Shown here in pieces: positions 29,441 to 30,541 of a DNA stretch of 64,000 bases (within the stretch, counting starts at the first letter, position 1; each line of letters starts with the position of its first letter). Location: sequence record PQ516281; one strand, written 5' to 3'. Position numbers and translations under genes: made by a program. The DNA is from Escherichia phage vB_EQ1. Under the pieces are notes generated by a model that did not search any database, was not told the DNA's origin, and saw nothing but the letters and a program-made list of their open reading frames with translations.

Positions 29441-30541
29441 TTACGCTGTGAAGATTTTATCCCACATCGCAACAACTGCATCTCGGTTATACTTCTTCCA
29501 TACTGCTTCAGCACGTTTAACTCTAGCTTCGTATGTGTCAGTGAATTCTAATACAGCTTTTGTGTAAAGCGCAACTACTTCTTTCTTAGGAGTAGAGGAA
29601 TCAATTTCTACACGCACAGTATCTGGGTCGTATTCGAATGTCGCATGAGGATAATCCTTAAAAACTAACTGGATTACAGGGACACCTTTAGAGATGGCTT
29701 CAATAGAACTATTCTCTACCGTACCTGTGTCAGGACACGTATTAATAAGTGCTTTAGCTGTTTTAAGACGTTCCATAATTTCACTGTGTGGAGCATCAAT
29801 AATAACAGGATATTTAGCTGGTGGTGCCCATTTACTAGGACAATAACCAATACCATTTTCGCCTAGTGCTTTAATTGCTTCAAGAGCAACATCAGTACGA
29901 CGCATTTTAGTGTCATAACGTTGTGCACTAATAATCAGATCAGTCGCCGGAAGAACTTCAGGTTTCTCATTCAAACAAATAACCGGATAATCTTCGGCTT
30001 CAAACAACGGATTTGCTCGCCAATAATCATAATCAATTTTGTCAGTCAGACCTGAAGTCATATAACAATATTTGCGTTCAAATTCACGGAAGGCTTTAGT
30101 GGGAGCATAACTCTTACCACCATTCTTATGAATTTGAATAGTCTGGTCCCAAATTTGAACAATACCACGAGATACCGGTTCAAATGGTGTTGCCATAAAA
30201 TTCTTATGAACTTTAGAGAGACCTGCGTCTTTAATTGCCTGAACGGTTAGTTTAGTCGGTTCCATAGTAACAACAAAATCGTATTCATGGATGCCGGCTA
30301 GTTCAACAATCTTACGAGCCATAGTATAACTCATACCTAGACTGAATTTTGTCAGATGACCAACAGGATGGTGTGTAACTTTCCAGTCACCAAACGTGTC
30401 ATTATCAAAGCCGATATAATCAATATCAGCACCAATAGAAACTAAATATTTCAACACATTTAAATGTACTGCTTCAAGGCCACCTTGTACACGGTCAGGA
30501 TTAAATGGGACTGCGCGAGATGGGATAAACATAACTTTCAT
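29441..30541 (-). CDS. GT-B fold glycosyltransferase, candidate DNA sugar transferase
   Basis: 366 aa; C-terminal ...TGTVENSSIEAISKGVPVIQL... resembles the GT1/GT4 donor-binding motif; no resemblance to T4 Agt or Bgt as recalled; sits where T4 has gene 60. Confidence 0.6.
   Translation of the reverse strand: MKVMFIPSRAVPFNPDRVQGGLEAVHLNVLKYLVSIGADIDYIGFDNDTFGDWKVTHHPVGHLTKFSLGMSYTMARKIVELAGIHEYDFVVTMEPTKLTVQAIKDAGLSKVHKNFMATPFEPVSRGIVQIWDQTIQIHKNGGKSYAPTKAFREFERKYCYMTSGLTDKIDYDYWRANPLFEAEDYPVICLNEKPEVLPATDLIISAQRYDTKMRRTDVALEAIKALGENGIGYCPSKWAPPAKYPVIIDAPHSEIMERLKTAKALINTCPDTGTVENSSIEAISKGVPVIQLVFKDYPHATFEYDPDTVRVEIDSSTPKKEVVALYTKAVLEFTDTYEARVKRAEAVWKKYNRDAVVAMWDKIFTA

Follow-up and report, generated by a model that had tools for sequence, protein, structure and literature searches.

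The 366-aa open reading frame at 29441..30541 (minus strand, ATG start) of Escherichia phage vB_EQ1 encodes a GT-B glycosyltransferase (GT) that is a known Mosigvirus enzyme, the ORF003c/gp3 protein of phage RB69, for which a structure has been solved. The open reading frame is present exactly as the first-pass annotation of the window (the whole stretch of 64,000 nucleotides analyzed here) had described it; the finding is real, and it is not new. Taken broadly, the protein is very probably a DNA arabinofuranosyltransferase of the 5-hydroxycytosine (5hoC) pathway. In the narrower reading that we favor, it is likely the enzyme that extends the sugar chain, a proposed second (beta-1,3) DNA arabinofuranosyltransferase that makes beta-D-Araf-(1->3)-alpha-D-Araf-5hoC.

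The vB_EQ1 protein is identical to RB69 ORF003c (NP_861693) at 363 of 366 positions, and two PDB entries match it at approximately 99% identity from end to end. These entries, released in July 2025, are described in the structure library as the "phage HY126 glycosyltransferase" in its apo form (9IQZ) and the same protein with UDP (9IR0). The RB69 and HY126 enzymes are practically the same protein as the one in the window, differing from it by only three or four substitutions (for example T56N, I230A, and T327I relative to RB69), and they share its locus order (rIIA, rIIA.1, GT, 60+39) and its cluster. The window itself is that of a Mosigvirus, with about 97% identity over 24 kb to APCEc01 and its relatives. 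A Shine-Dalgarno-like TAAGG (30549..30553, minus strand), read from the sequence, lies 7 nt upstream of the GT start codon. Among protein families, the GT matches PHROG 8302 (E 1e-222), which is labelled "unknown function," while Pfam and NCBIfam returned zero matches at E <= 10 and a single-sequence search of the PDB yielded no family name besides the near-identical 9IQZ.

The fold of the protein is that of a GT-B enzyme, as the first-pass annotation had proposed. An initial AlphaFold run on a 6-sequence alignment reached a pLDDT of only 58.9, and the Foldseek list from that model served as a pointer only; six more distant family members from an exhaustive profile search raised the pLDDT to 91.5, with a pTM of 0.87 and 13 family members aligned. 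The improved model shows alternating beta and alpha elements arranged in two halves, consistent with two Rossmann-like domains and a donor site in the cleft, and superimposes on the solved structure of the HY126 enzyme, which is 99% identical in sequence, with a TM score of 0.97. After 9IQZ, the top structural neighbors in both searches are GT4 enzymes (BshA, PimA, MshA, WaaG, PglA, SPS, and tll1591), and the proteins ranked below 9IQZ are ones that we take to be GT-B glycosyltransferases. Neither sequence nor profile comparison detected similarity to the T4 enzymes Agt and Bgt, and among the structural neighbors Agt ranks only 34th and Bgt falls outside the top 60, which bears out the earlier impression that the protein is unlike either of them.

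The proposed donor-binding motif, TVENSSIEAISKGVPVI, occupies residues 274-290. Across the family, R208, R214, N267, T268, T274, E281, A282, and G286 are invariant, and G20 and E276 are nearly so. An E-x7-E motif in the C-terminal domain is typical of GT4, whereas the conserved acidic pair in this family is E276-x4-E281; the remaining part of the motif, EAISKGVPVI, is canonical. The Pfam families Glycos_transf_1 (PF00534) and Glyco_trans_4 do not match the protein even at E <= 10.

The enzymes closest to it in structure have lipids, LPS, and small molecules as their substrates, and some database annotations name the protein a PimA-like mannosyltransferase. Both observations would fit an enzyme that glycosylates a target other than DNA, such as a host envelope component or a phage protein, and whose presence in arabinosylating phages is coincidental. 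We consider this very improbable, since the gene occurs only in phage groups that carry the 5hoC/UDP-Araf cluster, lies within that cluster in Acinetobacter phages, and has paralogs that modify DNA in vitro. The family is also tiny and restricted to phages: an exhaustive profile search of 1.84 billion proteins found 11 representatives, which derive from Acinetobacter phage records where the source is named and otherwise from metagenome sequences.

The idea that the enzyme transfers a pentose to DNA has been in print since 2018, in essentially the form in which the first-pass annotation arrived at it. Thomas et al. (PMC6024577) detected arabinose in the DNA of RB69, suggested that the uvsX-43 module synthesizes UDP-arabinose, and proposed the gene as the RB69 arabinosyltransferase. 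Lee et al. 2026 (PMC13326640) identified the base as 5-hydroxycytosine, with 5hodCMP made by a ThyA homolog using flavin and O2. The arabinose is ether-linked at C5 of 5-hydroxycytosine, and the base is not hmC (PMC13326640, PMC13390438). RB69 DNA carries both alpha-D-Araf-5hoC and beta-D-Araf-(1->3)-alpha-D-Araf-5hoC, and Acinetobacter phage DLP3 adds a third arabinose in a beta-(1->5) linkage (PMC13326640). The Mosigviruses Bas46 and Bas47 are reported to be doubly arabinosylated (PMC12923530), and a Bas46 deletion of an arabinosyltransferase named "Aat" has been reported to be viable. The first-pass annotation was right about the transfer of a pentose to DNA, while hmC, the acceptor that it named, was the wrong base.

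All of the published cluster genes are present in the window at 50811..57360, between uvsX (49540..50712) and gene 43 (57401..60112), and all lie on the minus strand. They encode a thymidylate-kinase-like nucleotide kinase (50811..51359; RB69 gp45 ortholog), a 299-aa GT (51361..52260; RB69 gp46:47 ortholog), a ThyA-like 5-hydroxy-dCMP synthase (52260..52976; RB69 gp48 ortholog), a U32-family protein (53254..54414; RB69 gp50), a HAD-type phosphatase of UDP-Araf synthesis (54472..54873; equivalent to RB69 gp51/AfhF), a bifunctional nucleotidyltransferase and kinase that makes UDP-arabinofuranose (54858..56543; equivalent to RB69 gp52:53/AfhE), and a SIS-domain arabinose-5-phosphate isomerase (56725..57360; RB69 gp55 ortholog). 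The PDB entries 9IQC, 9IR2, and 9IQU are near-identical to the synthase, and, given their adjacent accession series, they and 9IQZ/9IR0 presumably stem from one study (He et al. 2026). The 366-aa GT co-occurs with the 5hodCMP synthase and the UDP-Araf cluster, and its Acinetobacter phage paralogs sit within that cluster, so that the functional tie to the uvsX-43 sugar pathway drawn by the first-pass annotation stands.

In the pathway that we propose, dC would be replaced by 5-hydroxy-dC, which the ThyA-like synthase supplies as 5hodCMP, and the 299-aa GT, the proposed initiating alpha-arabinosyltransferase on 5hoC, would attach the first alpha-D-arabinofuranose to the C5 oxygen. With UDP-arabinofuranose supplied by the uvsX-43 cluster, the GT-B, GT4-like, UDP-binding 366-aa enzyme would then attach another arabinofuranose, this time beta-linked, at O3 of the first sugar. 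The product would be the di-arabinosylated base that dominates Mosigvirus DNA and shields it from nucleases. Since the first sugar is alpha-linked and later ones are beta-linked, more than one kind of enzyme must take part, and the 299-aa and 366-aa GTs have no sequence similarity to each other. We infer that the second step falls to the 366-aa GT rather than to the 299-aa GT. Both PMC13326640 and PMC13390438 make the same assignment of first and second transfer, the former proposing that RB69 gp46:47 initiates and that gp3 is "beta-arabinosyltransferase 2," and leaving undecided whether the acceptor of the first sugar is a nucleotide or DNA. The role of gp3 is itself a proposal in that study, in which the in vitro data come from paralogs that are 40-43% identical and active only when paired, and the initiating activity of the 299-aa GT likewise has the status of a proposal, as no individual DLP3 GT was active on 5hoC DNA.

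The extender role is drawn from phage distribution, paralog number, the published chemistry, and the in vitro activity of the Acinetobacter paralogs. Of 50,697 phage records, 348 contain the 299-aa GT, spread over many host genera including Serratia, Klebsiella, Yersinia, and Proteus, whereas 211 contain the 366-aa GT, all of them from Escherichia/Shigella Mosigvirus or Acinetobacter phages. In genera whose phages have no match to the 366-aa protein, the 299-aa enzyme is the GT that is present. Serratia phage records, for instance, have no match to the 366-aa GT, though Serratia phage 92A1 has the 299-aa GT, and the Dhakavirus JS10 encodes the 299-aa GT with no remnant of the 366-aa gene in its rIIA.1-39 gap. 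Acinetobacter phage Konradin has two 366-aa-type paralogs in tandem within the cluster, beside the kinase, GT1, and synthase genes. These are 43% and 40% identical to the 366-aa GT and 56% identical to each other, and because each resembles the other more than it resembles the window protein, no one-to-one orthology with a "second-step" paralog can be claimed. By gene order, the Konradin_072/073 pair corresponds to DLP3 gp76/gp77.

A core 299-aa GT is thus found throughout, and the presence beside it of no copy, one copy, or two copies of the 366-aa type corresponds to one, two, or three arabinoses, respectively. Chain length follows copy number from Thanatos (no copy and mono-Ara, as reported) through Mosigvirus (one copy, di-Ara) to DLP3-type phages (two copies, tri-Ara); in combination with the order of alpha and then beta linkages, this pattern supports the extender role. 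The first-pass annotation, like the 2018 paper, had instead seen in the 366-aa GT the enzyme that places the first pentose directly onto the modified base, with 5hoC now in the place of hmC. The distribution makes this improbable: arabinosylating phages of many genera do without the 366-aa GT yet keep the 299-aa GT, and Thanatos is reported to be mono-arabinosylated with a single 299-type GT (PMC13326640). The biochemistry points the same way, as the paralogs act on DNA that is already arabinosylated and form beta linkages, whereas the sugar next to the base is alpha-linked; purified DLP3 gp76 and gp77 together use UDP-Araf to place a third Ara on RB69 DNA, while individual DLP3 GTs are inactive on bare 5hoC DNA (PMC13326640). 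As a candidate for putting sugar on the base, the 299-aa GT is the better choice, being found in 348 rather than 211 records and being credited with the first transfer in the literature.

The requirement for both DLP3 proteins raises another reading, in which the 366-aa GT would not be autonomous but would work only in a complex with the 299-aa GT or some other factor, and crediting it with a single step would be misleading. The chains of 9IQZ, which run up to at least H, could be oligomers of this kind or merely copies in the asymmetric unit. We regard such a dependence as unlikely in vB_EQ1. Mosigvirus has a single copy of the 366-aa type, encoded about 21 kb away from the cluster and without sequence similarity to the 299-aa GT, and neither co-variation nor gene fusion speaks for a partnership.

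The extender role also brings together a protein that resembles GT4, a family of retaining enzymes, with the assignment of a beta linkage, while the base-proximal sugar is alpha-linked. If the donor is the 1,2-cis UDP-beta-D-Araf, the 366-aa GT could be a retaining arabinofuranosyltransferase that extends DNA glycans and has an unusual E-x4-E site, with the 299-aa GT as an inverting initiator. Displacement of the extender to the gene 39 unit could then set the approximately 1:4 ratio of mono- to di-arabinosylated base by timing. Taken as a whole, this combination is rather doubtful.

The GT gene lies between rIIA.1 and gene 39. The downstream neighbors are the 66-aa rIIA.1 homolog (29148..29348, minus strand) and rIIA (26922..29135; PHROG 612), and immediately upstream is a fused gene 60+39 (30584..32401, minus strand), which encodes the 605-aa large subunit of topoisomerase II and is probably co-transcribed with the GT. 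RB69 has the same gene order, and its fused subunit is annotated as "60plus39." In T4 this gap holds 60, 60.1, and mobA, and the first-pass annotation had the GT sitting in place of gene 60. As gene 60 is fused to gene 39 in vB_EQ1, the GT is instead an insertion beside the fused gene and replaces nothing of gene 60.

More generally, the rIIA.1-39 gap (29148..30583 in the window) is a variable cargo site in T4-like phages, carrying gene 60, 60.1, and mobA in T4 and the GT in Mosigvirus. In JS10 it contains 588 unannotated bases with small ORFs, and in Konradin ten annotated genes, including those for glutathionylspermidine synthetase and RNA ligase 2. A strong, imperfect 16-bp inverted repeat with a 29-nt loop (29369..29429, minus strand) separates the GT stop codon from the start of rIIA.1; its predicted RNA fold of -28.6 kcal/mol (z -4.3) was equalled by 0 of 200 shuffled sequences. 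RB69 conserves the repeat except for a single U-to-C change in the stem, by which an A-U pair becomes a wobble or mismatch. Since it lacks a trailing U-tract, the repeat does not qualify as a canonical terminator; the corresponding position in T4 carries an early promoter.

On the upstream side, the first-pass annotation had placed a terminator between gene 39 and the GT and concluded that the GT needs its own promoter. A hairpin does exist there (AAGCTCC-TTTG-GGAGCTT; 30568..30585, minus strand), with a 7-bp stem and a UUUG loop, and it overlaps the gene 39 stop codon. It is followed by CATTTTAATT in the DNA (CAUUUUAAUUUU in the RNA). As a terminator it is weak and at chance level, with 1 terminator-like site against 1.1 expected and a fold z of -1.25, and it may be a weak terminator-like or an mRNA-stabilizing element. 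In RB69 the loop is the extra-stable UUCG, the sole difference from vB_EQ1 in 81 aligned bases.

The need for a separate promoter does not follow from this arrangement. Only 26 nt separate the hairpin from the GT start codon, too short a distance for a promoter and leader, so that no promoter is to be placed between them. The 3′ part of gene 39 has no match to an early-type (GTTTAC...TATAAT) or MotA-type promoter, and two sigma-70-like matches within gene 39 are within chance expectation. Upstream of gene 39, 23 nt before its ATG, a MotA-box-like middle promoter match (TGCTTTA-N12-TAGAAT; 32424..32448, minus strand) is a candidate promoter for a 39-GT transcript. The underlying pattern, TGCTTNA-N11-13-TANNNT, is over-represented in the window, with 13 matches where 3.4 are expected. 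Given the weak hairpin, the short gap, and this upstream site, read-through from gene 39 is the simpler reading, and the GT is probably transcribed in this way rather than from a promoter of its own. Another MotA-box-like site (56572..56596, minus strand) precedes the nucleotidyltransferase-kinase gene, and together the two sites suggest that middle-mode timing is common to the displaced GT and the cluster.

A separate observation concerns the U32-"peptidase"-family protein encoded within the 5-hydroxycytosine cluster. Homologs with at least 80% identity are found in 221 phage records, and the protein is missing in those Acinetobacter phages that have the remainder of the pathway. A gene for a 79-aa chorismate mutase adjoins that of the ThyA-like synthase in this part of the cluster in 48 records of other genera (Klebsiella, Serratia LC53, Yersinia, Edwardsiella, and others); in the locus that was inspected (L009, 5983..7394), it lies between the U32 gene and the synthase gene. 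The 79-aa protein matches Pfam CM_2 with 38.5 bits (cutoff 27). The product of chorismate mutase is prephenate, and the U32-family proteins RlhA, TrhP, and UbiU/V are prephenate-dependent, O2-independent hydroxylases, of which RlhA makes 5-hydroxycytidine in rRNA. The pairing of U32 and chorismate mutase genes suggests a prephenate-dependent, oxygen-independent route, and by this analogy the phage U32 protein may be an O2-independent hydroxylase that provides an anaerobic path to 5-hydroxycytosine, complementing the O2-dependent flavin enzyme. The accessible literature on this DNA modification makes no mention of such a route, and RB69 gp50 is labelled a "sugar or heterocycle reductase" in PMC13326640. 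In vB_EQ1, the slot of the chorismate mutase is taken by another 79-aa ORF (53018..53257, minus strand), which has an ATGA overlap onto the U32 stop codon. This ORF is found only in Mosigvirus, evolves unusually fast for this region (78-94% identity, against at least 99% for its neighbors), and is often shortened to 47-58 aa. It was considered as a diverged chorismate mutase and rejected, having no detectable similarity to chorismate mutase.

As publications already cover the gene, the fold and UDP complex of its product, and the part it plays in the arabinosyl-5-hydroxycytosine pathway, the GT finding itself holds little that is new, and the U32/chorismate mutase lead is the more promising of the two. 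The assignment of steps nevertheless has practical consequences. The number of arabinoses on phage cytosines alters recognition by restriction enzymes, type IV systems, glycosylases, and CRISPR, and knowledge of which GT adds which sugar would allow the engineering of phages with defined mono- or di-arabinosyl DNA.

DLP3 gp76/gp77 belong to the same family as the 366-aa GT, with 40-43% identity over the full length and a GT-B fold, and they use UDP-Araf to make beta-linked extensions on DNA-bound arabinose. They are, however, tandem duplicates within the cluster, shown to be active only as a pair, which build up to the tri-arabinoside with its (1->5) third linkage, whereas vB_EQ1 has a single copy, displaced to the rIIA.1-39 gap. 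The bacterial GT4 retaining enzymes (PimA, BshA, MshA, WaaG, and sucrose-phosphate synthase) share 10-15% identity with the 366-aa GT and have E-x7-E where it has E-x4-E, and the acceptor proposed for the phage enzyme is a sugar on DNA. T4 Agt (GT72, PDB 1Y6F/1XV5) and Bgt (GT63) both act directly on hmC, whereas the base in RB69-type DNA is 5hoC. A parallel in logic comes from T2 and T6, in which a beta-glucosyl-HMC-alpha-glucosyltransferase makes gentiobiosyl-hmC. There too, a second GT extends the sugar on a modified cytosine, and the disaccharide alters sensitivity to host defenses, a likeness that is supported by PMC13390438. The T2/T6 enzyme differs from the relationship that we propose for the 299-aa and 366-aa GTs in its base (hmC rather than 5hoC), in its sugar (glucose rather than arabinofuranose), and in its donor.
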